From an uncultured Paraprevotella sp. (GTDB lineage: Bacteria > Bacteroidota > Bacteroidia > Bacteroidales > Bacteroidaceae), in contig CALUIV010000003.1 in the NCBI GenBank assembly GCA_944320775.1, positions 253 through 64,252 of the forward strand: a stretch of 64,000 nt of DNA, read 5' to 3'. Under the pieces are notes generated by a model. It saw nothing but the letters and a program-made list of their open reading frames with translations. It was not told the origin of the DNA and ran no database searches. A program made the translations under genes and the position numbers. Numbering within the stretch: the stretch's first letter is position 1; each line of letters opens with the position of its first letter. This document shows positions 11,913-47,782 of the stretch, piece after piece.

Positions 11913-12965
11913 CTATAATACATAGCCGACCCGCAACAAACCAAGAATATTCCTTTCCTGATTATTCCTGATCAAATGGATAGCGGGCTGTACATAACCA
12001 TTTTTATGAGAAAAAGGAAACTTCCAGGTTAATTCACCCGCCCATTCATATGAATCCATAAAATCTGCATGATTAATAAAAATACCACCAACCGTCTGTT
12101 TTTTATGGAAAACCATTCCAACTCCAACGTAATTCCGACAATTCAAATATGCAGCCGGAGAAACCGAATATTGCAAAAGCAAATGAACATTCCGAAATAC
12201 CCGTTTTTCTATATACCCCCATAAAACAGTCGATATGTTTTTCTTATTTACATTTATCTCATCAAATTCACGGCCATTTTTATGCTCTGAATCTCCTTCT
12301 AAATAAAAGACAAAACCACCAAAATAACCATTACCATTTCTCTGATAATCTACAGAAATAATACTCAAGAGACCATCTGCATCAGGACAAAAACGGAATA
12401 CATTGTTCATTCCGGTAATATTCCGATATCCTGTTCCATTATATAATGACGATTCAATGGTCCAATGATTAAATTTCAATTTATAGTCTATCGCCATGGA
12501 TGCTACCGGATAATTGGCTATCGGATAATTAGCGGATATTGTAGGAAATATACCACAGGAGCTGTTGGTAAACAAAGAAGTACACGATGAAACAAAATAA
12601 TCCTCATTCAAATTACGCACACCGAAGAAAAAAGAAGATTGCTCCATAGGAATCCGAATCCCCAAAACGGCTGGTGCCAAAGGAATACCTTCTGCTTCAA
12701 TATTGGAAAACACCTGTAAATCATTTGCCAGACGTTCCTGTCTAGTTTTGGCTACACTGACAGATGCACATTCAAATTCTATTTTTCTACCCAAAGGTAA
12801 AGTAAAATCACTCCGAAGCAGGTTCACCCAATTTGCTCCCTTTCTGAAATCTGTCTGCAATTCTGTTGTATAAGTCAATTCGAAAGTCTGTGCAACAAGA
12901 TGGTGACAGTTCATAAGCCCTGTCACCATAAAAACAACATATATATTCTTCATTGTTATATTCAA
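11913..12965 (-). CDS. Outer-membrane porin-like beta-barrel (OprB-like)
   Basis: Signal peptide, alternating beta-strand pattern, C-terminal GLLRVGYVL; 4 bp downstream of mgtA. Confidence 0.6.
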   Translation of the reverse strand: MNITMKNIYVVFMVTGLMNCHHLVAQTFELTYTTELQTDFRKGANWVNLLRSDFTLPLGRKIEFECASVSVAKTRQERLANDLQVFSNIEAEGIPLAPAVLGIRIPMEQSSFFFGVRNLNEDYFVSSCTSLFTNSSCGIFPTISANYPIANYPVASMAIDYKLKFNHWTIESSLYNGTGYRNITGMNNVFRFCPDADGLLSIISVDYQRNGNGYFGGFVFYLEGDSEHKNGREFDEINVNKKNISTVLWGYIEKRVFRNVHLLLQYSVSPAAYLNCRNYVGVGMVFHKKQTVGGIFINHADFMDSYEWAGELTWKFPFSHKNGYVQPAIHLIRNNQERNILGLLRVGYVL

Positions 12966-17571: not shown

Positions 17572-17671
17572 AAGAGTTGTGAAACTCCAGTTTTTATAGC
17601 TTAATTAAAAGATCTAGTTTAGTTTTTGTGTTGGTTAATGGGAGCTTTTTTGAGCTCCCATTAATTTTTTT
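17572..17671 (+). ncRNA. Candidate ~100-nt small RNA or leader RNA
   Basis: Bounded by a consensus promoter and a strong intrinsic terminator; contains no ORF. The 5' end is estimated from the -7 element. Confidence 0.55.
17635..17671 (+). terminator. Intrinsic terminator
   Basis: Perfect 12-bp stem ttaatgggagct / agctcccattaa, 6-nt loop, then T7. Confidence 0.88.
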
Positions 17672-17696
17672 CATACCTATAAAAAAGTTTGAAAAA

Positions 17697-18917
17697 ATGA
17701 AAATAATCCATACTAGTGACTGGCATCTTGGACAAACGCTCTACGGCCATGACCGCACAGAAGAACAAACTGCATTTTTAAATCAGTTAGTCGAAATCGT
17801 CAGGAAAGAACAGCCGGACGCATTGGTCGTCAGTGGTGATATTTTCCATACCAGTACTCCTTCATCTACAATTCAGAAGCTCTACACCGAACATCTGCTT
17901 CGTATCCGCCAGGCAGCTCCAACAAGTACAATCGTCGTCACAGCCGGCAATCACGACAGTGCTTCCAAATTAGAAATTACCAGTAGCCTTTGGCAACACT
18001 TCGGAGTATATATTATCGGACAAATTCATCGCAACACTGATGGAACAGCAGATCTGTCACACCATATCATTCCTGTTCGTCCTACTCCTGAAAGTGCTCC
18101 AAAAGGGTTTATCATAGCTGTTCCTCATGTCTATCCCTACAATTTTCCGGATTTAACAGGTGATACTCCACGAGAACAACGCCAAGAAGCTTTCTTTAAG
18201 ACACTCCAGACCATTACCGATCAGCTGAACTCCGACAACCTTCCTGTAGTCCTGATGGCCCACCTGACCGTGACGGGAAGCGATCAGACCGGTCATGATC
18301 TTTCCTTAGGCGGCATGGACAGTATTGACATCCGAACACTTGGCAACGGTTATGATTATCTGGCCTTGGGACATATTCACGGACAACAAACACTCTCCTC
18401 TCCATGTGGTACTGCCCGATATTGCGGTACACCAATTCCAGTTAGTTTCGACGAAAAAGGCATACACTCGGTCAGCCTTGTTGAAATAACAGCTCACCAT
18501 ACCCACCCCAAAATACAAACCATCCCAATCCAGAACCCTTGTCCGCTCCATACCCTTCCAACCACACCGCTTCCAATCGAAGAAGCACTCGAAGCATTGC
18601 GGAATTTCTCAACGACAGACACGGCCTATATCCGATTAAACGTATTGGCAGAAAACTTTCTTAATCCCAATGCCCAGGAACAAGCTTCAGAACTATCCCG
18701 GCAAAAAGGCTACCGTTTCTGTTACATACATATCCAAAGACCCGAGTCAAAACTACAAAATCAGCATCATGCCCTGACCGTTCAAGAATTACGTAAAAAG
18801 TCACCTGTTGACATTGCCCGCATGTACTACGAAGATACTCAAAACACCAACCTCCCCGAAGATTTTACTACCATGATCCAGGAAGCATGGCATCAAATCC
18901 AAGAAGAAAATAATTAG
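17697..18917 (+). CDS. sbcD: Exonuclease SbcCD subunit D (Mre11-like)
   Basis: HTSDWHLG, VSGDIFH, AGNHDS, MAHL, ALGHIH metallophosphoesterase motifs; start MKIIH at 17697. Confidence 0.93.
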   Translation: MKIIHTSDWHLGQTLYGHDRTEEQTAFLNQLVEIVRKEQPDALVVSGDIFHTSTPSSTIQKLYTEHLLRIRQAAPTSTIVVTAGNHDSASKLEITSSLWQHFGVYIIGQIHRNTDGTADLSHHIIPVRPTPESAPKGFIIAVPHVYPYNFPDLTGDTPREQRQEAFFKTLQTITDQLNSDNLPVVLMAHLTVTGSDQTGHDLSLGGMDSIDIRTLGNGYDYLALGHIHGQQTLSSPCGTARYCGTPIPVSFDEKGIHSVSLVEITAHHTHPKIQTIPIQNPCPLHTLPTTPLPIEEALEALRNFSTTDTAYIRLNVLAENFLNPNAQEQASELSRQKGYRFCYIHIQRPESKLQNQHHALTVQELRKKSPVDIARMYYEDTQNTNLPEDFTTMIQEAWHQIQEENN

Positions 18918-18935
18918 TTTCAACTCATATTCCTT

Positions 18936-21900
18936 ATGCATTTCAAGAAACTTTATATAAAAAATCTGGCATCAATTGAAGAAGCAGAAATCGACTTCGA
19001 AAACGGCCCGCTTTCTGAAGATGCCCTATTTCTGATTTGTGGCGAAACCGGATCTGGAAAAACCACTCTTTTAGATGCTATCTGCCTTGCTTTGTTCAAC
19101 AACACACCACGCATGGAACAAAGCAAGCAAGAATGTTATTATGATCATCCGACCAATTCTGAAACAGCTCAGAACCAGATTTCCAAAACCGACGATCCCC
19201 GACAACTTTTACGCAGAAATACAGGCGAAGCTATTGTACAACTTGAATTTACCGGATCGAACGACTTAAAATACACAGCCATTTGGAATGTTTATCGAAG
19301 TCACCGTAAAAGTACAGGAACCCTACAAGATATCCGATGGACTCTGATCGATGAAACCAACAATTGTACCTATACCAAAAAGGGAGAGATCAAAGAAGAA
19401 ATCAGTCAAGCCGTTGGCTTGACCTTTGAACAATTCTGCCGAACGACCATGCTGGCACAAGGGGATTTCACACGATTTTTAAAGAGCGACAGTAAAGACA
19501 AGTCTGACATTCTGGAAAAACTGACTGGCACGGCAATCTATTCCCGTATAGGAATCCAAATTTTTCAGATCAACAAACAAAAACGAAATGCGCTCGAACA
19601 GCAACAATTAAAACTCAATAATATCCGGCTGTTCACACCGGAAGAATTGGAACAATACAACACCGAACTGCAGGAATACATCCAACAGATTGGGCGCATG
19701 CGTCAAAAACAAAAAGAACTTCAGGCACTGGAACAATGGCAAAAACGCGCTATCGAACTGGCCCGACAAGCAGAAATAAAGCATAACGAACTAACAAAGA
19801 AACAGACCGAGCTTCAATCTGAACAATTTCTTGCAAAAGAAAAGCTACTGGAACAATGGCACAGTTCTGCAGACGCCCGAACTCAACTTAACCAGCTGAC
19901 CGTTCTTCGACAACGTGAAAAAGAACTTCAAAAACAATTGTTGGAAAAGAGTAACACTTATGCCAATCTCTGTTTCGACCTGAAACAACTGAAACTTTAC
20001 ATAACAAAAATCGAACAAAACGTACAACAGGTCCGCAACATACAGACAGCATTGGCTCCACTTTCAAGTATGCTTGAAAACGAACAGGCCATATCAGCAA
20101 CCTTGCGCCAACTTATTCAACAACGCGTACGTCTTGATTCGCTAAAGGAACGGGAACTACAATTACGCCAGCAACTCACAATCCAGGAAGAGAAAAGCAA
20201 AGCATCGGGTAAAGAAGCCCAAAAACTTGCAGAACAGCTGGAACAACTACAAAAAAATATCACTGAACAGCAACAGCAACTCAACCAGAAAAAAGCTACA
20301 GAAGTCCTACAACAAAAAAGCCTTCTGGAACAAGAACGACATTTGCTTCAACCAGCGCTGACCGACATTACGCTTCTGATAGAGCGTCGGAACAACAAGC
20401 AACAAGCTCGAACATCCTGCAGCAACTGGCAAAACCAACTACAAAAAACAGCTGAAGCAGAAAAGGCAGCAACTTTAGAACAAACAGAAAAGAAAAAAGC
20501 AGCCGACGACTTCGAACAATTATTCAATAAACAAAAAGCCGCCATCGAAGACTGGGCACGCGAAGCCCGCTTCCGTCTTCATCCCGGAGATTCCTGTCCC
20601 GTATGTGGCCAAACCGTCCACAACATTCCCACCGATGAACAGTTCCGCTCCATACTGACTCCCATGCAAGAAAAGTTAGACCTTCTGAAAAAAGAAAGCG
20701 ATGAACAGGAAGCTAAAGTACGCAGCCTCAATGCCCAAAGAAAAGCCTACGAAGAACAATATCGACAAGCCGTTGAAATCCTGCACACTTGCGAAGCAAA
20801 CTATTCGGAAGCTTACACAAAAGCCAGTCAAAGCTGCGCAGCCTGTGGGATACCAACCTTTCAGCAAGATACACCAGCACAGCTGGATAACCGTCTGAAA
20901 AATGTACAGACCCAACTGGAACATCTGAACATCAAGGAACAGGAAATCAACAGACTCAACCAACATATACAGCAGCTACAGCAGAAAAAAGACCAGTTGC
21001 AAACCTTATTTAACACCAAAAACAAAGAAACGAACCAACTCGAACAGCTTCATGCGGCATTAAAGAAACAAATCGAAGAACTCATCCGACAAGCCAGTTC
21101 CGAACAACAGGCACTTAGCGAACAAGAAAATCTGCTGGCTCCTCAGATACTCTGGGAGGACTGGAAAAATATCTGGAAAAACGATCCGTCCCAACTGTTA
21201 ACCAGATTAGAACAAACCGGTAAAACCTATCGTCTGTCACGAGAACAGCAACAGCAACTCGAGCAACAGCTCAATCAGGCACAATCTGAATTACGCGAAG
21301 CCGAACGCAGCTGCCAGTCTGTCACTCTAGATTTTCCGGAGTGGACTCAGATTCCGGCCACCCGTACCCTATTCCAACCCGAAGGACTTCTCTCCCGTTG
21401 GAATGAGCTACAATCACAAGCCTATAATCTGGCACAAAGTCGAAATAATCTCCGGAAAGAAACAGATGCACAAACCCAAGCCCTTCAGGATTTTTATCAC
21501 ACACATCCCGATATCTCTCCGGAACGCCTGAGCTATCTAACCCGAATGACCACAGACGATACAACCAATCTGCAACACCACCTGCAAAAAGCCCGAAACG
21601 AAGAAGTAGCATTGCAGAGTGCTTTGAAACTTATTCTTGAAGAACAAGAGCAGCACATCGGAAATCGTCCTCCTTTTGCACTGACTGACGATCAGTCGCT
21701 TGAAGAACAACTCCGAAGTACTGAACAGGCAATATCAGAAACCGACCAGAAGATCGGACGTCTGACAACCACTTTGGAAGAAAACCGGCAACGGCAAAAA
21801 CAATGCGAACAAGAGCAAAACGAATACAAACGCCTTGAGTCGGACTACCACAAATGGAACAGTCTGTGTCATCTTTTCGGCGACAATAACGGAGTAAAAT

Positions 21901-22358
21901 TCAGGAATATAGCCCAAAGCTACGTACTCCGCGAACTACTCTATCATGCCAACCAATATCTACGACAGTTCACCGACCGCTACGAAATGATTTGTCCGTC
22001 AGTGAGCCTGACCATCCTGATCCGAGATTTCTATCAGGGGGGTGCCCAACGTCCAACAAGTACCCTTTCAGGAGGTGAAAGTTTTCTAGTTTCCCTGTCA
22101 CTGGCTCTCGGCTTGTCTGCATTAACCCACGACAACCAGTCTGTCGACACCCTCTTTATCGATGAAGGATTCGGAACACTGAGCAGCGATTATCTGAATG
22201 TCGTCATGGATACATTAGAAAAACTACACCAACTTAACGGCAAGCGCGTCGGCATCATCAGCCACGTAGAAGGATTGCGCGAACGTATCCGCACCCAGAT
22301 TCAGGTACGCCGTAAAGACAATTCCTGCAGCGAAATCAAAACTGTCTGCCTCAACTGA
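18936..22358 (+). CDS. sbcC: SbcC/Rad50-like SMC ATPase
   Basis: Walker A GETGSGKT, long coiled coils, CPVCG zinc hook, LSGGE signature, FIDEGFGTL Walker B. Confidence 0.93.
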   Translation: MHFKKLYIKNLASIEEAEIDFENGPLSEDALFLICGETGSGKTTLLDAICLALFNNTPRMEQSKQECYYDHPTNSETAQNQISKTDDPRQLLRRNTGEAIVQLEFTGSNDLKYTAIWNVYRSHRKSTGTLQDIRWTLIDETNNCTYTKKGEIKEEISQAVGLTFEQFCRTTMLAQGDFTRFLKSDSKDKSDILEKLTGTAIYSRIGIQIFQINKQKRNALEQQQLKLNNIRLFTPEELEQYNTELQEYIQQIGRMRQKQKELQALEQWQKRAIELARQAEIKHNELTKKQTELQSEQFLAKEKLLEQWHSSADARTQLNQLTVLRQREKELQKQLLEKSNTYANLCFDLKQLKLYITKIEQNVQQVRNIQTALAPLSSMLENEQAISATLRQLIQQRVRLDSLKERELQLRQQLTIQEEKSKASGKEAQKLAEQLEQLQKNITEQQQQLNQKKATEVLQQKSLLEQERHLLQPALTDITLLIERRNNKQQARTSCSNWQNQLQKTAEAEKAATLEQTEKKKAADDFEQLFNKQKAAIEDWAREARFRLHPGDSCPVCGQTVHNIPTDEQFRSILTPMQEKLDLLKKESDEQEAKVRSLNAQRKAYEEQYRQAVEILHTCEANYSEAYTKASQSCAACGIPTFQQDTPAQLDNRLKNVQTQLEHLNIKEQEINRLNQHIQQLQQKKDQLQTLFNTKNKETNQLEQLHAALKKQIEELIRQASSEQQALSEQENLLAPQILWEDWKNIWKNDPSQLLTRLEQTGKTYRLSREQQQQLEQQLNQAQSELREAERSCQSVTLDFPEWTQIPATRTLFQPEGLLSRWNELQSQAYNLAQSRNNLRKETDAQTQALQDFYHTHPDISPERLSYLTRMTTDDTTNLQHHLQKARNEEVALQSALKLILEEQEQHIGNRPPFALTDDQSLEEQLRSTEQAISETDQKIGRLTTTLEENRQRQKQCEQEQNEYKRLESDYHKWNSLCHLFGDNNGVKFRNIAQSYVLRELLYHANQYLRQFTDRYEMICPSVSLTILIRDFYQGGAQRPTSTLSGGESFLVSLSLALGLSALTHDNQSVDTLFIDEGFGTLSSDYLNVVMDTLEKLHQLNGKRVGIISHVEGLRERIRTQIQVRRKDNSCSEIKTVCLN

Positions 22359-23469: not shown

Positions 23470-24876
23470 TTACAGTTCCACTTCGACAGCTGCCGGATAG
23501 AGGCGCTCCGGGTCGTAATAAGCAGCACAGCTGTTCACCATATTTTCAACCGAACATTTCAATTTGCCACTAAACACTTTCCGTCCATTCACCCGTACGG
23601 TGATCTTTTTCGACAGGTCTACCAGATTTTCATTCAAATAAATTATGAATTTTCCGCGTTTGGCCGGTTGATACTGTTTCGTAAACTTCAATTCTATTCC
23701 CCAATGCGGATCCCGCTCCACGGTTGTATACGTCACATCATCAACCGTCATATCAATCCGGTTGTCACGGATTTCCATCACATATCGGGTGCGGCTTCCC
23801 GGAACCGTATCCGTACGTTCCACAACATAAAGGTTATAAAATCCGTCGCGATACCATCCATCCATGTCATACTGCTCCCAAACCACCTTTTTCGGATGCG
23901 GCTGGCGCGTAAACTGTTTCAGCCAAGGTGTTGTCGGCCGGTAGTCAATGCAGTGGCCCATACCCGGAATCAGTTCCACCCGATGTGCATAGCCCTCCGG
24001 ATCGGTCTGCTGCAGGCTGTCGAATTCCTGGCGGACATATTCCGTCAGCTGATTTCGATAGAATCCGGCATCCTTGCTACCGGTCAGCAAAGAAAATCCG
24101 ATGTTCCGGCAATTTTCAGCCGGTGCATTCTTCAGCGGTTCGCCACCGGCCATCGGTCCGGCCGCTGCCAGATAATCGGCATAGAACGAAGCCAGACGCT
24201 GGCTGCCGTATCCGCCTTCCGATATGCCGAAGAAATAAACCTTGTTCGCATCGATCTGCCCTGTCACAAAAGCCTGGCGCAACAACTGTTTCCAGGCAAA
24301 CTGCTTCGACTTCTGCCACCAGCGGTAATATTCTCCCATATTCGGAATCTGCGGAATGAAATATGCCGACGGAGCATCATCGAACATCCGGCACAGCGCA
24401 AGTCCCGTGGCCCACTCATCATTCTTATGACCGGAACCATGAAGATAGACGAACATCGGGAAACCATTTTCAGGCTTTTCTCCTTTCGTTCCCCAATAAT
24501 ACATCAGGTCGGCATAAGGTTCGAGCTGACGCGGCAGACGCCATTTACCAATCCGTTCCTGCTCCAGCGGTTCCAGACCGATCAGTTTCGGCTCGCGCAC
24601 CTCCTTATTGGCCCGACACCAAGCCTCCCAAACCTGTTTCCTTACTTGAGCCACCTCCGACACCGGGATGAAACTACCGCCATCATACACCGTATCCTTA
24701 CCGGCTATGGCCTGCTTGAAGAAAGCCACCATGCCCTCTTCATCCGCCGGCACCTCTCTTGTGCTCGTTTCACGACGCAAATGTCCCGTCTCATCAGTCG
24801 TTGCAACCGGCAAACCGGCCGATACACTGCCTGCCAGACCGAAAATCACACTGCAAAATAAAAATATCCGATTCAT
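23470..24876 (-). CDS. Secreted alpha/beta-hydrolase (esterase/depolymerase-like)
   Basis: Signal peptide MNRIFLFCSVIFGLAGSVSA; YLHGSG oxyanion region, GISEGG nucleophile elbow, GMGH His. The start could be 24876-24885. Confidence 0.65.
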   Translation of the reverse strand: MNRIFLFCSVIFGLAGSVSAGLPVATTDETGHLRRETSTREVPADEEGMVAFFKQAIAGKDTVYDGGSFIPVSEVAQVRKQVWEAWCRANKEVREPKLIGLEPLEQERIGKWRLPRQLEPYADLMYYWGTKGEKPENGFPMFVYLHGSGHKNDEWATGLALCRMFDDAPSAYFIPQIPNMGEYYRWWQKSKQFAWKQLLRQAFVTGQIDANKVYFFGISEGGYGSQRLASFYADYLAAAGPMAGGEPLKNAPAENCRNIGFSLLTGSKDAGFYRNQLTEYVRQEFDSLQQTDPEGYAHRVELIPGMGHCIDYRPTTPWLKQFTRQPHPKKVVWEQYDMDGWYRDGFYNLYVVERTDTVPGSRTRYVMEIRDNRIDMTVDDVTYTTVERDPHWGIELKFTKQYQPAKRGKFIIYLNENLVDLSKKITVRVNGRKVFSGKLKCSVENMVNSCAAYYDPERLYPAAVEVEL

Positions 24877-25291
24877 AGTCATCATAATTAATCTCATTAT
24901 CATCAAAACACGCCATCGTGTTTTTGTATATCCGTCTACAAAGATATATATAATCTGAGAAAACACCTGATAAAAATCCAATCCCCCAATCTTTCCCGTT
25001 TGACAATTTGACAAACGAAAATCCTCTATCTATCCCCTTCCGAAGTAATTCGCTATGGAGCAACGATCTGAACCTTTATCAGTTCATAATTACAAGAAAA
25101 GTACCCTGATAAATAAAAGAAAACAAGCATAAAAAGCGTAGTTTTATAAATTGGTCAGTTACAAATGTTTCTAAAATAACGCTTCTTATGCCCGTTCTGA
25201 AGATTTTGCTCTTAATCCAAGGATATCAAATAGAACTTATATCTATCATTTTATCAGTAAACGAACCATAGGACAAAGCAAAAAAAATAAT

Positions 25292-38804: not shown

Positions 38805-38860
38805 TATCTTTGCAAAGATAGTTTTTTCGACTTAATTATAAAACAACAAAAATATTTTTG
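38805..38860. promoter_or_regulatory. Two palindromic double -7 promoter elements in the Dabb/helicase intergenic region
   Basis: TATCTTTGCAAAGATA (38805-38820) and CAAAAATATTTTTG (38847-38860) each give TAnnTTTG on both strands. Confidence 0.6.
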
Positions 38861-38902
38861 TTGCAAAAAATATACAGCAAAATTCTTGCAAGCGAAACAA
38901 TA

Positions 38903-41900
38903 ATGGAACAGCAGCAGACACAAAACAGAGGAATGAATGAATGGTTTGAAGAAATCATGCTTATTGACCGGACGGAAAAAGAAAAGAGAACACAATATTA
39001 CCGTCTGGACCGACTTGTAGAAAGAATGATTAAAGACAAGACCAAAGGATTCGCCGCAGATTTTACCAACATGGCAGCTCGCACACATGCTTTATGTAAA
39101 GCAACCGGATATCCACCTACATCACTGGAACGTTTCCGATGTAATGCAGCCCAGATTAAAAGAGGAGAACTCCAACCTGATCGTGAAGACTATTTGTATG
39201 ACCTGAAAGCTGTTTGCGAAGCCATTTCTTTTTTTTATAATGAACCGATACCGGAGATATTAACAAAAAAATTGCCGCATCACTGGAGAAACAAAAACAA
39301 ACAGCAAGAACCACGCCAAAAAATCAAAAGGATAAGACTGACTGTTACGGGATGGAACGAACAATACATCCTGGGCAAAGACAATAATGCTCCGGACGAA
39401 GGAATACTACACGTAAGCTATCGGAATCCGAATGACGAGACTGGGGCTTTTGACAATCTGCCCGAACAACTCTACGACGGAGCGCAACTGAACCTGCTTT
39501 CTGTGGTCAGATGCACAGACGAAACACATCCGGACATAAGCATACTGAAACCAGAACTGATTATATTGGATCCGGATTTTCTCGTAGACATTACAGCAAT
39601 CTGCGCGTGCATTAAACCGTATGGAAAAAGTGCCCTGAACCACATCGTCAACAAGTTTGCACCAAACGCCAAATCAGCTGCCATCCAGTTGGGAAATCTG
39701 GCCAACCGCTTTTTGGACGACTGCGTAAATGAACAAGCACACGAAACAAGAAGCGAGAACGAACTGTATCGGGAATCACTCCACCATAGTTTCGGAGAAA
39801 CTCCCATCGAATATACCACCTTACCGGGAATTGACAAGAATTTCTTTGATACGGCCGAAAAGCAGTTTCATAATATCAGGGAAACCGTGAAGGAACAATT
39901 TCAGGCCGCAGATATTGACATCGAACGGCAAGAGGTGCAACTCGAACCGTCCTTCCTTTGTGAAGCACTCGGCATACAGGGGCGTATGGACCTGATGCTG
40001 AATGATTTTTCGAAAATCGTTGAGTTGAAGAGCGGCAAGGCTCAGGAATTTCCAGAACTACAGCCGCAGGAAGTACACGGCCTGCAGATGGCACTCTATA
40101 AGGAAATTCTGTATTACAGTATGGACGTGGCACATCAGGACGTGGAAACCTATTTGTTCTATTCCCGCTATCCCAGGTTCTATAACATCCGCTATCCCAA
40201 AAAGGAATTGCAAAAAGCCATGGCTCTGAGAAACGAGATTGTTCATCTGGAGAGACGGTTACGACAGGGACATTGGCGGGAAATACGGGAAATGCTCACC
40301 GAAGAGCAACTGGTCGATCCTATGACGTTGGGCAGTACATTCTACCAAAAGTATTTGCGCAAGGACCTGATGCAGATCATCAACACACTCCATCAGATGA
40401 AAGATACGGAGGAAGCCTATTTCAATGCCTTTGTGACTTTCCTCGAGAGGGAACAGTTTCTTGCGAAAACGGGAGATGACGATCCGGATTCCGGACATGG
40501 ATTTGCCGAAACCTGGAATGCCGATACCCGGACCAAACAAAGCAACGGCAACATCCTGACTGACCTGAAACTGACTCCTGTCGAAGATGAAAACGGAACG
40601 GTTGTCGGACTGGAAGCCGCCATGCCGGAATATGGGGAGGATTTCCTGCCCAATTTCCGACCGGGCGACCTCGTCATGCTTTACGAAAGGAATACGGAAA
40701 ACGACCTGGCCATCAACAAACAGATATTCCGATGCCAGATTGAGGAAATGGGTGCAACGAATATTCGTCTGAAACTGAGCTTCAAACAAAGGAACAAACG
40801 TGTGTTTCATACCGAAAGCCGGTATGCACTCGAACCGGGATATATGGATGCGACGTTCACACAAGGCTATAAAGGGCTTTTTGAACTGTTGCAGGCTCCG
40901 AAACAGAGAAAAGACCTGATTTTAGGACTAAGACTACCTAAAAGAGACGAACAGGTCACTTGTAACGGACATTATACCAATCAGGATATTGACCATATTG
41001 TAACATTAGCCAAACAGGCCAAGGATTATTTTCTGCTGGTCGGACCTCCGGGAACCGGAAAAACCTCTGTGGCCCTGCGTTCGATGGTCCTTGAATTTCT
41101 TTCCGAAACACCCCGGAAAAATCTGCTGCTGATGGCATATACAAACCGGGCCGTAGATGAAATCTGCAAGATGCTGGACGACCTGACTGTCGACTATGCC
41201 CGAATCGGACAGGAGCTAAGTTGCGAAAAAGAATATCGGAAAAGATTGCTGAAAAATATCATCGCTCCGGCAACGAACAGAAAGCAGATTTTTGACCTGT
41301 TGGAACCCATCCAGATTGTAGTCGGCACCATCAGCAGCATTGCCGGAAAAACGGAGCTGTTCCAGTTAAAACGGTTTGACGTGGCCTTAATCGACGAAGC
41401 TTCCCAGGTGCTCGAGCCGCAATTGCTTCCGTTGCTTTGCGCCACGTCCTCACTGCCTACGGCCGATTTCCATGCTGATCCATGCGCTATCACTAAATTC
41501 ATTCTGATCGGCGACCACAAACAGTTGCCGGCCGTCGTCGTGCAACCTAACGAGTTATCGGAAGTGCACGATGAGCAACTACACGACATCGGACTGACCA
41601 ACTGCAGAAACTCATTGTTCGAACGGTTGCATCATCTGCAAATTCAGAAAGGCACAACCGGATTCGTGGCCTTGCTGAACAAACAGGGGCGCATGCATGA
41701 AACGTTGAGCGACTTTGTCAACAGGCTCTACTATAACGAGCAATTGCAGGTCGTGCCGCTCCCCCACCAGTTAGGTCAAACAGACTTCCCCTGCTGTGAT
41801 GAAGCTGACCAATGGACCCGATTTGTAGCCCATTGCCGGATGGGATTTATCCCCATAACGAAAACCGGAACGAACGACAATAACAAAGTGAACCGCGATG

Positions 41901-42340
41901 AAGCCCAAAAAGCAGCAGAGTTGGTAAAGACCCTTTACCAACTCTATCTGGAAAATCATATGGAATGGGATGCCGGACAACATATAGGAATCATCGTTCC
42001 TTTCCGTGGGCAGATCGCCATGACCAGAAAAATGCTGAACGAAACGGGTATTCCGGACTATAGTAGCATCACAATAGATACGGTAGAACGCTATCAGGGC
42101 AGTCAGCGGGATACGATTATCTACTGCACTACGATTAGCCAGAAATACCAGATGGATATGCTTTCAACCCCCGTTGAAACTGACGGTATCTGTATTGACC
42201 GGAAACTGAATGTGGCACTGACCCGGGCACGAAAGCAGTTTTTCCTTATCGGCAACCCACTGTTACTACGCCAGGCTGAGGACTATCGCAAACTGTTGGA
42301 CTATATACAACAGATTACTTCCGAACAAAACCAATCTTAA
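38903..42340 (+). CDS. Dna2-like PD-(D/E)XK nuclease fused to a UPF1-like SF1B helicase
   Basis: Nuclease GRMDL...VELKSGK...QMALY; helicase GPPGTGKT, DEASQ, GDHKQLP, KQGRM, TVERYQGSQRD, RKLNVALTRA; start MEQQ at 38903. Confidence 0.85.
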   Translation: MEQQQTQNRGMNEWFEEIMLIDRTEKEKRTQYYRLDRLVERMIKDKTKGFAADFTNMAARTHALCKATGYPPTSLERFRCNAAQIKRGELQPDREDYLYDLKAVCEAISFFYNEPIPEILTKKLPHHWRNKNKQQEPRQKIKRIRLTVTGWNEQYILGKDNNAPDEGILHVSYRNPNDETGAFDNLPEQLYDGAQLNLLSVVRCTDETHPDISILKPELIILDPDFLVDITAICACIKPYGKSALNHIVNKFAPNAKSAAIQLGNLANRFLDDCVNEQAHETRSENELYRESLHHSFGETPIEYTTLPGIDKNFFDTAEKQFHNIRETVKEQFQAADIDIERQEVQLEPSFLCEALGIQGRMDLMLNDFSKIVELKSGKAQEFPELQPQEVHGLQMALYKEILYYSMDVAHQDVETYLFYSRYPRFYNIRYPKKELQKAMALRNEIVHLERRLRQGHWREIREMLTEEQLVDPMTLGSTFYQKYLRKDLMQIINTLHQMKDTEEAYFNAFVTFLEREQFLAKTGDDDPDSGHGFAETWNADTRTKQSNGNILTDLKLTPVEDENGTVVGLEAAMPEYGEDFLPNFRPGDLVMLYERNTENDLAINKQIFRCQIEEMGATNIRLKLSFKQRNKRVFHTESRYALEPGYMDATFTQGYKGLFELLQAPKQRKDLILGLRLPKRDEQVTCNGHYTNQDIDHIVTLAKQAKDYFLLVGPPGTGKTSVALRSMVLEFLSETPRKNLLLMAYTNRAVDEICKMLDDLTVDYARIGQELSCEKEYRKRLLKNIIAPATNRKQIFDLLEPIQIVVGTISSIAGKTELFQLKRFDVALIDEASQVLEPQLLPLLCATSSLPTADFHADPCAITKFILIGDHKQLPAVVVQPNELSEVHDEQLHDIGLTNCRNSLFERLHHLQIQKGTTGFVALLNKQGRMHETLSDFVNRLYYNEQLQVVPLPHQLGQTDFPCCDEADQWTRFVAHCRMGFIPITKTGTNDNNKVNRDEAQKAAELVKTLYQLYLENHMEWDAGQHIGIIVPFRGQIAMTRKMLNETGIPDYSSITIDTVERYQGSQRDTIIYCTTISQKYQMDMLSTPVETDGICIDRKLNVALTRARKQFFLIGNPLLLRQAEDYRKLLDYIQQITSEQNQS

Positions 42341-43400
42341 GATTCAGTTTCAAATAATACAAACGGTTTTCCCGCTCAAGATAACCATATTTGTCTTTGT
42401 CGGGCAAACCTTTTTCCAACCGGGTATGCGTGAACAGGAATTCGGCAAATGTTTCGCGGTCATTCTTCTGATAAGACAAGAGACGACCATCATGGTCTAC
42501 CATGACAAAACCGGAAACGGCCGATTCCTTACCGGTATAAATTTTAGCCGGGCGCATCCCCAAAGCTAAAGCCAAAAGGAACTGCTTCATTTTATGACGA
42601 TAAAAACCATGTTTATGAATTAGTTCATCCTTAATTTTCAGAGGATTTTTCTCTTCAATCAGCTGTGTCAGTTCATCTACCCGACTGATATTGTCCAAGT
42701 GTAAAATACGCGTCATTTCCGCCAATATACGAGGGAAATGCAAATCAATCATATGCAGATTACTCCGGAAAATTTTATCGGCCACGTCACTATATTTCAG
42801 TACACCCCCCATACTTTCAATATAAAGCATCCGGCGGGCCACCTCTGCCGGATTTTCAGGTGATTCTGTATAATTGATTTTATTGACTGCCGGTTGGGAG
42901 AAACGAATACCCGTCTGTTCAAACTTCAAATTTGCCGTACGGCCACCATCCAACAAAGGATCCATACCACAAAGACGGGAATAAATACGGAAACCGACCA
43001 AAGGCATATCCTCACGATAGAATGCCAGATAAAAATCGGTACGGTCATCGGTAATTGCTTCCATATTATAGATTTTCAAAGCATCCAGAAAACCTTCAAC
43101 CCCTTCGGGCGCTTCTATTTCAGTTTCTGAAGAAGCCCGCAATACAGTAAGAATCATTTGAGAAACAGTCTCGAAATCTTCACGTGGAAACAATTCATCA
43201 ATATCAGGTCCCACAACCCGAACATCCTGTTCGCGAATCACATATCGGCGTGTACCGTCATGTTCTTCCCGTTGTATCAAAGCAATGGGGAGAACAGATT
43301 GAGCATTTCCGGCAGCATCACCAGCGGCAAGTTCACCTTTTGCCAAAAGCGAAAACAAAGTATATAATTCATTCCATTCTCGACGTGTAGCTGTCAACAT
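42315..43400 (-). CDS. HpaII family restriction endonuclease homolog, orphan, possibly inactive
   Basis: EWNELY.LF.LLA.G, RTD...GFRIYSRL, FRSNL.MID..FPRILAEM, NPL..., ALGMRP, YLKLNLKIGF align with R.HpaII as I recall it; 361 aa from MLTATRR at 43400. Confidence 0.8.
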   Translation of the reverse strand: MLTATRREWNELYTLFSLLAKGELAAGDAAGNAQSVLPIALIQREEHDGTRRYVIREQDVRVVGPDIDELFPREDFETVSQMILTVLRASSETEIEAPEGVEGFLDALKIYNMEAITDDRTDFYLAFYREDMPLVGFRIYSRLCGMDPLLDGGRTANLKFEQTGIRFSQPAVNKINYTESPENPAEVARRMLYIESMGGVLKYSDVADKIFRSNLHMIDLHFPRILAEMTRILHLDNISRVDELTQLIEEKNPLKIKDELIHKHGFYRHKMKQFLLALALGMRPAKIYTGKESAVSGFVMVDHDGRLLSYQKNDRETFAEFLFTHTRLEKGLPDKDKYGYLERENRLYYLKLNLKIGFVRK

Positions 43401-43469
43401 ATCTTTCCTATTTTTTACGTGAAACACTAGCTAAACCCAAACACAACATTCGTATGATGGATTCTTTTG

Positions 43470-43508
43470 CAAAATTAATGATTTATATGATTATTTTCCG
43501 TATATTTG
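43470..43508. promoter_or_regulatory. Divergent -7 elements for the HpaII-like gene (TAATTTTG, minus, 43470-43477) and sdaA (TATATTTG, plus, 43501-43508)
   Basis: Both match TAnnTTTG at plausible distances from the starts. Confidence 0.55.
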
Positions 43509-44757: not shown

Positions 44758-44885
44758 TCCCATAGAGTTTCTAACAGAATATCCAAACAGATTACATAAG
44801 GACTCATTTTCAGAAAATGATATAAAGACTGAGTCTTAGATATAAACAATCGCTTGCAAAAGAAGAATCCGACAATCTGAAATAG

Positions 44886-44929
44886 AAAATCCCCCAAAAG
44901 CCGTAATGTTCCAGCTTTTGGGGGATTTT
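44886..44929. terminator. Bidirectional terminator
   Basis: 16-bp inverted repeat aaaatcccccaaaagc / gcttttgggggatttt between convergent genes. Confidence 0.85.
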
Positions 44930-44952
44930 TCCATTTCAAGGAATTAATGTTC

Positions 44953-45432
44953 CTATTTCTCTTGCTGCGTCAGGAAATCCAGCAAACCATCACATGCATC
45001 TTCCAGAATATCCAAAACAGTTTCAAACCCTGAGTCTCCACCATAATATGGATCTGGCACATGATCAGCCGGAATTCGTCTACAAAAATCCGTCATACGA
45101 TATATTTTCTGTTCCTCAGGAAGTCCCGGAGCCAAATCACGTAATCCAGACAGATTACTGTCATCCATTCCGATCAGCATATCAAAATCAAAAAAATCAT
45201 GATAACCAACCGGACGGGATAAATGCGTAATCCGATATCCCCTACGAGCTGCATGAGCACGCATCCGGCTATCTGCAGGATCTCCCTGATGATAACTGCT
45301 CAAACCGGCAGAATCCAAGTCTATCTCTTTCTCCAACCCCGCATGAACAACCCGGTTACGCATAATTTCTTCGGCTGCAGCCGAACGGCAGATATTCCCA
45401 AGACAAACAAAAAGTATTCTTTTCATACCCAA
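44953..45432 (-). CDS. Low molecular weight protein-tyrosine phosphatase
   Basis: FVCLGNICRS P-loop, DSAG, VPDPYYGG. Confidence 0.94.
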   Translation of the reverse strand: MGMKRILFVCLGNICRSAAAEEIMRNRVVHAGLEKEIDLDSAGLSSYHQGDPADSRMRAHAARRGYRITHLSRPVGYHDFFDFDMLIGMDDSNLSGLRDLAPGLPEEQKIYRMTDFCRRIPADHVPDPYYGGDSGFETVLDILEDACDGLLDFLTQQEK

Positions 45433-47272: not shown

Positions 47273-47782
47273 TTATTGTTTTGAACTGACGACAAAAGAA
47301 TCAGAACCAGAACAATTACCTTCCGTCAGTCCTGAATTAACTAAATTAATCTGACCACTAATCCCTTCTTCCGGATCGTCATAAGTACCGCCATTATTAA
47401 TTACCGACCCCTGACCAGAGAACTGATAATTAGCAGAAAATTTTACACTGTAATTACCGACCGGAGCATCATCAGGCAACCAAAAGCCGATCACCGGATC
47501 AGCCGATTCGTTATCATAAACAACCTTTTTGGTTCCACTATACATTACAGTACCCTGGCATTTCACTTCCCAAGTATACGTAGCCCGATAAATCAGATGT
47601 CCTTTTTTTGCCTGAACAGCAGTAATTGTAATCGAATCACCGATTGTCGGATCAGACGGAGTTATACGAAACCCCTTAAAGGTCGGAACATAGGAATTAT
47701 AATCCTCTTTATCACAAGAAACAAGTCCTATCAAAGAAAACAAGAACAAAAGCGGTACGAATGACCAGAAAATTCTTTTCAT
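47273..47782 (-). CDS. Uncharacterized lipoprotein (Ig-like beta-rich)
   Basis: Lipobox LVSC followed by acidic DKED; beta-strand-rich 169 aa. Confidence 0.7.
   Translation of the reverse strand: MKRIFWSFVPLLFLFSLIGLVSCDKEDYNSYVPTFKGFRITPSDPTIGDSITITAVQAKKGHLIYRATYTWEVKCQGTVMYSGTKKVVYDNESADPVIGFWLPDDAPVGNYSVKFSANYQFSGQGSVINNGGTYDDPEEGISGQINLVNSGLTEGNCSGSDSFVVSSKQ

Follow-up and report, generated by a model that had tools for sequence, protein, structure and literature searches.

A methyltransferase-free HpaII-type gene of the Bacteroidales as a probable exapted restriction-enzyme scaffold

What function does a restriction endonuclease gene serve when no methyltransferase accompanies it and its protein has a Tyr where the family has an invariant Lys? 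This question is raised by an HpaII-family gene at 42315..43400 on the minus strand of a 64,000-nucleotide stretch of DNA from an uncultured Paraprevotella sp. (contig CALUIV010000003.1; this whole 64-kb stretch is called the window below, and the protein encoded by the gene is called the query). Restriction enzymes are usually regarded as selfish, mobile and short-lived genes.

We found that the gene is an old, vertically inherited, exapted derivative of a restriction enzyme, and that its clade is under strong purifying selection. The conclusion that the protein is not a restriction enzyme, and that canonical catalysis has become dispensable, is well supported. Our favoured explanation is that it is an exapted restriction-enzyme scaffold which probably no longer restricts, for which the ancestral cleavage chemistry is dispensable and which probably has a housekeeping role, most plausibly in nucleic-acid binding.

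The HpaII-like protein and its motif residues

The gene is read from an ATG at 43398-43400 to a TAA at 42315-42317 on the minus strand and encodes 361 amino acids (aa); the same 361-aa product is given by public gene calls on identical contigs. A GTG at 43427, nine codons upstream of the ATG, lengthens the mechanical open reading frame (ORF). The orthologues all start at M(L/A)(T/F)..(R/K)REW, and because the query N-terminus MLTATRREW aligns with them and the public calls give 361 aa, we do not regard the GTG as the start.

The product matches Pfam RE_HpaII (PF09561) along its entire length (residues 5-358 on model positions 1-359 of 359; 427.2 bits, cutoff 25). PADLOC assigns it to the Type II restriction endonucleases (REase_II, 140.6 bits). 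No NCBIfam model matches it, and phmmer and profile searches of PDB sequences found no relative. The window organism is a chicken-gut member of the Bacteroidales, and its nearest relatives (P0002 and L040) are 86% identical. The intact, full-length HpaII-like ORF reported in a preliminary description of this DNA was thus borne out by the coordinates, the public gene calls and the end-to-end Pfam match.

Searched exhaustively, 1.84 billion cluster representatives yielded 1355 family members. In an alignment of 121 full-length representatives, the canonical majority (106/121) reads K(S/A)D-I...GFSIKSxLG...TLLNA. The remainder includes the group of the query, which reads DRTD...G(F/L/V)(R/C)(I/V)(Y/R/Q)SRL(C/G/S)...PLLDGGR(T/A)AN. 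The query itself has DRTDF...GFRIYSRLC...PLLDGGR in place of the canonical consensus ...DKxDI...LGFSIKSxLG...TLLNA. We compared a canonical set (n = 225) with a clade set (n = 118) position by position, in query numbering, as follows.

42315..43400, minus strand: HpaII-family coding sequence, 361 aa plus TAA stop; member of the Lys-less 'LLDGGR' clade of Bacteroidales
43035..43037, minus strand: codon of Asp122 (the Asp in K(S/A)D / RTD), which immediately precedes predicted strand 123-127
43014..43016, minus strand: codon of Arg129; Asp in 97% of canonical members ('HD'), variable in the clade (S/D/H/N)
42987..42989, minus strand: codon of Arg138; Ser in 100% of canonical members (the S of S-x-K), variable in the clade (R/C/N/S, also V)
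42981..42983, minus strand: TAT codon of Tyr140; Lys in 225/225 canonical members (100%), variable in the clade (Y/R/Q/C, also N), never Lys
42939..42950, minus strand: D151-G-G-R154 of 'LLDGGR', clade-defining; replaces canonical 'LLNA(G/S)x'
Position 144: Gly in 100% of canonical members, variable in the clade (C/G/S)
Position 151: Asn in 100% of canonical members, invariant Asp in the clade
Position 114: Lys in 90% of canonical members, invariant Glu in the clade

The query therefore lacks the D...S-x-K pattern of functional HpaII-type enzymes, having R138, Y140 and R129. Judged from the alignments, Tyr140 is a character of the clade and not a private mutation or lesion. Among the 120 closest database proteins (at least 54% identity), column 140 is Y51/R44/Q22/C3/N1 and never Lys.

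We also assembled 101 loci that carry the gene. Twenty-one came from GTDB species representatives (Paraprevotella, Bacteroides, Phocaeicola, other Bacteroidaceae and one metagenome-assembled genome labelled Clostridium). The other 80 were the best 80 of at least 524 metagenome relatives, mostly from human gut. In 76 of these 80 metagenome loci the motif reads C-x-R, S-x-R, R-x-Y, N-x-R, R-x-N or R-x-Q, never with Lys, and in four the pattern was not matched.

Thirty-four other positions keep the same residue in both sets, including E8, E11, Y13, R44, Y53, D122, S141, N157, N176, N214, D219, Y267, K270 and N353. As positions 129, 138, 140 and 144 are relaxed while these 34 stay, the relaxation has hit a small set of canonical invariants on one predicted hairpin. 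In addition, E114 (canonical Lys), D119, D151 (canonical Asn) and R154 are clade-specific, each at more than 97% conservation. The loop from D122 to the motif strand is about three residues shorter in the query's group than in a 52-sequence canonical consensus; in the 121-sequence alignment, canonical members carry an insertion of 10-13 columns between these elements.

Compared with R.HpaII and the canonical PF09561 enzymes (C^CGG, Type IIP/E, paired with M.HpaII-type C5-methyltransferases), the query is a full-length family match at approximately 28-32% identity. It shares with them E8/W9/E11, R44, Y53, D122, S141, N157, N176, N214, D219, Y267 and K270. It differs in S138R, K140Y, D129R and N151D, in its shorter D122-motif loop, in having no methyltransferase, and in its chromosomal housekeeping context and vertical inheritance. 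Most of what the preliminary description had stated of the motif was accurate: its canonical motif KSD...GFSIKSQL matches the family consensus, a Tyr codon does stand in place of the Lys, and the N-terminal EWxE helix (E8, W9, E11) is conserved. The replacement extends across the Bacteroidales orthologues.

Methyltransferases, selection and genomic context

When the 51 main ORFs of the window were scanned against Pfam, none showed a DNA methylase domain. A six-frame screen of the window for 5-methylcytosine (m5C) and N6/N4 methyltransferase motifs was likewise negative, and the same screen detected the methyltransferase in five control loci. The earlier remark that the 64 kb holds no DNA methyltransferase agrees with both results. 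Across the larger set, an ORF with a methyltransferase motif was found within 6-10 kb of the gene in 0/101 loci. In the canonical controls, on the other hand, a PF00145 methylase was adjacent in 3/3 lineages, lying directly upstream, overlapping or within a few hundred bases.

One of these control methylases is fused to Vsr. In the canonical HpaII restriction-modification (R-M) locus of Chryseobacterium (L120, 1008-4074), a 560-aa Vsr-DNA_methylase fusion is accompanied by a 105-aa ORF between methylase and endonuclease, which may encode a controller protein.

There is a precedent for such solitary genes. Ershova 2012 (PMC3488263; NAR 40:10107) described 11 orthologous solitary HpaII-like restriction endonucleases in Bacteroides (endonuclease orthologous group 37, R-M groups 6/7). 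Six of the 11 genomes had no candidate methylase anywhere and five had weakly predicted 'separated' methylases. Citing REBASE, that paper stated that one member, BthVORF1149P, has no restriction endonuclease activity, and it proposed a change of function.

One possibility is accordingly that the query is a classical CCGG enzyme, or one of altered specificity, served by an unlinked chromosomal methyltransferase in a 'separated R-M system'. The candidate orthologous methyltransferases in five genomes of Ershova 2012 (PMC3488263) would fit this, as would the range of our own search, which took in the 64-kb window and up to 10 kb around the other loci. We nevertheless consider it very improbable. 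The S-x-K of 225/225 canonical enzymes is absent and variable here, Ershova 2012 (PMC3488263) itself rates the predictions as weak and has six further genomes without a methyltransferase, and one orthologue is listed in REBASE without activity. Order-level vertical inheritance, housekeeping synteny and the low substitution ratios given below are also unlike the behaviour of R-M systems.

The window shows no avoidance of CCGG: 424 sites were observed and 384 were expected from a trinucleotide Markov model (1.10-fold, approximately one site per 150 bp). Because CCGG is this abundant, an active and unprotected CCGG cutter would be lethal. Against the same trinucleotide expectation, the ratios of four palindromes in the window were 0.47 for CTAG, 0.66 for GATC, 1.37 for GCGC and 1.10 for CCGG; the depletion of GATC could point to a system directed at GATC in another part of the genome.

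Another possibility is that the gene is the slowly decaying remnant of a solitary restriction gene. The lost catalytic motif and missing methylase are what such a remnant would show. However, the ORF is intact and full-length in 101/101 loci, and Nei-Gojobori ratios of nonsynonymous to synonymous substitution (dN/dS) were 0.03-0.09 in the eight pairs with unsaturated dS, which indicates strong purifying selection. Identities of 48-86% are held across at least three families, and new invariant residues have been gained. With the loci intact and dN/dS this low, the decaying-remnant reading is effectively refuted. Sporadic and decaying orthologues had been named beforehand as the finding that would count against domestication; the intact loci, low dN/dS and vertical inheritance are the reverse of that.

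The genomic context is that of a chromosomal gene. The window is a housekeeping segment with rfb/ugd-type sugar genes, ilvBNCD, aroC, sbcCD, a P-type ATPase and resistance-nodulation-division (RND) efflux genes; it further carries hisGDCB, sdaA, pan genes and ABC-2 transporters. The order serine dehydratase (SerDH), HpaII-like gene, helicase, ..., hisG is shared only by Paraprevotella-type genomes. In many Bacteroides-type genomes an IMPACT/YigZ gene lies upstream (gap of 10-85 bp) and a nitroreductase gene downstream, all on one strand, and one or both of these flanking genes occur in 32/80 metagenome loci. Examples are the following.

L014, 4019-6388: IMPACT/YigZ, HpaII-like, nitroreductase
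L020, 8276-10647: IMPACT/YigZ, HpaII-like, nitroreductase
L038, 4391-6698: IMPACT/YigZ, HpaII-like, nitroreductase
L016/L021, 9344-11113: IMPACT/YigZ, HpaII-like, nitroreductase

In another context the gene follows rpoD-like and flavodoxin-like genes and faces a convergent alpha-amylase-like gene, and in yet another it is followed by a major facilitator superfamily (MFS) transporter gene. No universal partner gene and no mobile-element or defence context was seen in the loci examined. Identity to the query is 70-74% for Paraprevotella-type proteins and 48-59% for those of Bacteroides/Phocaeicola and other Bacteroidaceae, which fits vertical descent. This lineage-specific housekeeping synteny is not the sporadic, horizontally mobile distribution expected of R-M genes. 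Neither does the locus resemble that of a Type IV enzyme, for which one would expect an intact nuclease site and usually a defence island; here the motif is degenerate and the neighbours are biosynthetic or housekeeping genes.

Sister clade, fold and residual catalysis

In a neighbour-joining tree of representatives, the Lys-less 'LLDGGR' clade groups with a sister clade that reads 'LLP(A/P)(H/N)R' and comes from Coprobacter (Barnesiellaceae) and unclassified Bacteroidales. Position 140 of the sister clade is K/C/R/H/Q depending on the lineage, and E11 and D151 vary as well. In four of its lineages (41-51% identity to the search query P0138) the gene stands immediately upstream of rnhB (RNase HII) on the same strand, with a gap of 2-8 bp or an overlap and no methylase. 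In two of the four the pair adjoins the rpsL-rpsG-fusA operon. Judging by this arrangement, the two genes form an apparent conserved operon.

L031, 6001-7679: HpaII-like gene and rnhB
L033, 6001-7672: HpaII-like gene and rnhB
L035, 5059-6769: HpaII-like gene and rnhB
L037, 473-2177: HpaII-like gene and rnhB

In the query's own clade rnhB was absent within 10 kb of the gene in the loci examined, and it is absent from the window.

The residues invariant in 28 diverse sequences of this methyltransferase-less superclade are R154, N157, P170, N176, R190, G198, F211, L215, D219 and N252, together with K255, Y267, L275, G281, G290, L322, G339, N345, L352 and N353. R154 is in fact invariant throughout the superclade. 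D122 is retained in the query's clade and lost in some deeper superclade members. All of the superclade invariants lie within residues 154-353, with none in the N-terminal helix or the D122/S-x-K hairpin. Since these invariants exclude helix and hairpin, the methylase was lost and the motif relaxed long ago, at order level (Bacteroidales). Selection now falls chiefly on the C-terminal two-thirds of the protein.

Was Lys140 catalytic in the first place? Orlowski & Bujnicki 2008 left HpaII in an 'unknown superfamily' for which no reliable PD-(D/E)XK motif could be proposed; their table gives it subtype P,E, i.e. a family with two DNA-binding sites. Steczkiewicz 2012 newly placed PF09561 in the PD-(D/E)XK superfamily through remote homology. 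In the canonical site of that superfamily, core strand 2 starts with an Asp and strand 3 carries (D/E)-x-K. The same study noted that the Glu or Lys has migrated to a neighbouring helix in some families (Pa4535, Cfr10I), and that some members have lost activity and serve as nucleic-acid-binding units.

We built a full-length AlphaFold2 (AF2) model from an 80-sequence alignment (predicted local distance difference test, pLDDT, 92; predicted template-modelling score, pTM, 0.90) and a separate model of the N-terminal half (pLDDT 80). In the full-length model strand 123-127 begins right after D122, and the next strand, 135-141, contains residues 138-140, the two forming a hairpin of the expected geometry. 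From the absolute invariance of Lys140, this topology and the published superfamily assignment, we infer, with good motivation, that Lys140 is the catalytic Lys of a PD-(D/E)XK site.

The preliminary description had presented the motif as a 'PD-(D/E)XK core'. The motif is real in the family and the hairpin geometry fits, but the term was overstated, as the catalytic role rests on remote homology. The structural comparison was similarly divided, with the modelled hairpin as expected and no significant nuclease match in Foldseek searches of the PDB. The best nuclease match of the full-length model was MspI, at rank 3 (E = 0.56, template-modelling score 0.16-0.21), which is not significant although MspI cuts CCGG as HpaII does. 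In MspI/HinP1I-type enzymes, the (D/E) slot of the D...(N/Q)-x-K motif is filled by a residue that is not acidic. Recurring matches to beta-clamps were dismissed as noise. PDB sequence searches and Foldseek found no solved structure in the HpaII family or of a relative. When the C-terminal half is removed, model confidence drops in the segment PLLDGGRTAN (148-157), and this drop suggests that the segment packs at a domain interface.

Several observations weigh against a protein that binds without cleaving. Neither the full-length nor the N-terminal-half model gave a Foldseek match in the PDB with E < 0.1. The query's clade retains D122, E8 and E11. The newly invariant charged residues E114, D119, D151 and R154, with R/K142, surround the old site and could, on sequence, represent a centre that has been remodelled but remains active. 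With an isoelectric point of 5.9 vs 6.1, the clade is no more basic than the canonical enzymes, and we rejected charge as an argument for DNA binding. The methyltransferase search covered the window and the flanks of the other loci. BthVORF1149P was likened to the clade by description. Finally, three chicken-gut runs labelled RNA-Seq gave uniform 20-35 kb contigs, are DNA-like and are uninformative on expression.

It could be speculated from these points that the protein remains a nuclease whose active site has been remodelled and whose role needs no methylase, either as a MutH-like nickase of repair or replication or as a modification-dependent (Type IV-like) enzyme. The charge of Lys140 would then be supplied by R142, R154 or K174, and D151, E114 and D119 would join D122 in metal binding. 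The retention of D122, E8 and E11 and the clade-specific conservation of D151, E114, D119 and R154 agree with this, and R/K142 shares a strand face with residue 140 in the alignment and the AF2 model. The documented migration of Lys or Glu to an adjacent helix in Pa4535 and Cfr10I, the RNase HII gene co-operonic in four sister-clade lineages and the Dna2-like helicase beside the query would fit as well, and a REBASE entry of 'no activity' would miss an enzyme that depends on modification or DNA structure.

On the other hand, the superclade varies at D122 (H/S/T/A in some members), at E11, at position 142 (M/F/P/L/I/Q/K) and at D151 (P/A/K/G). Only R154 and N157 are universal, unlike the pattern expected of a metal-dependent site. 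Arg rarely substitutes for a catalytic Lys, and the gene lies outside defence islands. As most of the residues it calls upon vary in the wider superclade, a remodelled nuclease is weakened as an explanation, and we regard it as unlikely, though with real points in its favour.

The explanation that we favour, an exapted scaffold, would run as follows. An ancestor of several Bacteroidales families (Bacteroidaceae, Prevotellaceae and Barnesiellaceae) would have lost its cognate C5-methyltransferase. The endonuclease gene would then have settled among housekeeping genes and been inherited vertically since. With canonical cleavage no longer required, the Ser-x-Lys on the predicted third core strand and Asp129 could drift freely, while the rest of the fold, chiefly a Lys/Arg/Asn/Tyr set within the C-terminal two-thirds comprising R154, N157, N176, R190, N214, D219, N252, K255, Y267 and K270, would have stayed under strong purifying selection. 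Its most likely mode of action now is to bind nucleic acid through recognition surfaces that the HpaII fold has retained, without catalysis or at least without restriction, in a housekeeping role in DNA metabolism.

The preliminary description had called the protein a domesticated, nuclease-dead restriction enzyme. Domestication stands: the clade is conserved, there is no R-M cassette and no pseudogene, S-x-K, D129 and G144 are free to vary, and a methyltransferase accompanies 0/101 loci. The word 'dead' goes further: that Lys140 was once catalytic, that cleavage was then lost, that DNA binding was retained, and any specific cellular role are all matters that we infer; a DNA-binding regulator or a protector of CCGG sites, as that description had suggested, may be among such roles.

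The RNase HII operon of the sister clade hints at a role in replication or repair. A recruiter or accessory role in these processes would be the most concrete lead, given the rnhB operon and the Dna2-like neighbour, both of which could be mere synteny. A decidedly tentative extension takes the entire methyltransferase-less superclade as a housekeeping DNA-metabolism factor of the Bacteroidales, either an adaptor that binds DNA by site or by structure, or a specialised nickase, working with enzymes that process primers or ribonucleotides. The hints for it are the RNase HII operon in Barnesiellaceae and the Dna2-like helicase adjacency in Paraprevotella. RecC, with its nuclease-like domain, and MutH, a repair nickase related to Sau3AI, likewise use a restriction-endonuclease-type scaffold in housekeeping DNA metabolism. 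The likeness is by analogy only; homology reaches no further than the proposed superfamily, and the fold is unsupported by Foldseek.

Neighbouring features, earlier work and significance

Two features adjoin the gene in the window.

38858..42340, plus strand: superfamily 1 (SF1) helicase, 1160 aa, with a Dna2-like N-terminal region; convergent, its 3' end overlapping the HpaII-like gene by 26 bp
43470..43477, minus strand: -7 promoter box TAATTTTG, Bacteroides-type, 69 nt upstream of the ATG; weak evidence

The 1160-aa protein has a C-terminal SF1B helicase (AAA_11/AAA_12) and an N-terminal Pfam Dna2 match just below threshold (21.1 vs 22.4 bits). It also contains a D...ELK-type nuclease-like motif, with partial PADLOC MkoA-like matches on the helicase part only. 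On sequence it appears to be a bacterial Dna2-like nuclease-helicase. We rejected the idea that the helicase and the HpaII-like protein form a two-gene system, as their adjacency is confined to Paraprevotella-type loci.

The TAATTTTG box is consistent with a promoter of the HpaII-like gene. The 'consensus promoter' first described, if taken in the sigma70 style, is not relevant for Bacteroidales; of that claim the Bacteroides-type -7 box alone survives. No -33 TTTG was found upstream of it, and the -7 motif is modestly enriched in the window (69 matches vs approximately 52 expected).

Elsewhere in the window, an operon of sbcD (Metallophos + SbcD_C) and sbcC (AAA_23, SbcC Walker B; 1140 aa) lies at 17628-22358 on the plus strand, approximately 20 kb away. 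At 44759-44957, between the serine dehydratase and low-molecular-weight (LMW) phosphatase genes, contigs of an approximately 99% identical strain break and continue with unrelated sequence in the three DNA-like chicken-gut runs, which suggests a strain-variable insertion or replacement. Three minus-strand ORFs have no Pfam match at E <= 1e-5: 23470-25014 (514 aa), 11913-12965 (350 aa) and 47273-47782 (169 aa). The 514-aa product has a signal-peptide-like N-terminus and, by eye, esterase-like motifs.

The preliminary description had put the protein forward as its strongest candidate for an undescribed function. Because Ershova 2012 (PMC3488263) had reported the Bacteroides group, the oddity is not undescribed; solitary HpaII-like proteins and a change of their function are both in that paper. 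The genes here share the features of that group, being HpaII-like, without a methyltransferase within 4 kb and with close orthologues across species, and the clade includes B. salyersiae, B. nordii, Paraprevotella xylaniphila and P. clara. Ershova 2012 (PMC3488263) contains no motif analysis, and the word 'catalytic' is absent from it. Our searches found no later functional work on solitary HpaII-like proteins and no functional paper on BT_1149.

New here are the clade-wide loss of the invariant S-x-K, D129 and G144 and the gain of 'LLDGGR', which provide an explanation at the level of residues. The scale of 101 loci in at least three families, the dN/dS values, the order-level superclade and the rnhB-linked sister clade are likewise additions.

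These data describe an HpaII-type gene that has persisted in at least three Bacteroidales families, with the abundant human-gut Bacteroides among its carriers, without a methylase, with its motif drifting and under strong purifying selection. It is a clean example, from nature, of how a restriction-enzyme scaffold can be reused. Hundreds of gut-genome annotations that read 'HpaII family restriction endonuclease' are probably functionally wrong, and counts of R-M and defence systems built on such annotations (PADLOC REase_II) are probably wrong too. The proposed mechanism is conjectural; the gene itself is conserved, widespread and comes with a testable lead, as the RNase HII operon of the sister clade offers a concrete starting hypothesis and Bacteroides is genetically tractable. 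If the superclade were indeed a DNA-binding adaptor or nickase, few domestications of a Type II restriction enzyme would be older or more widespread.

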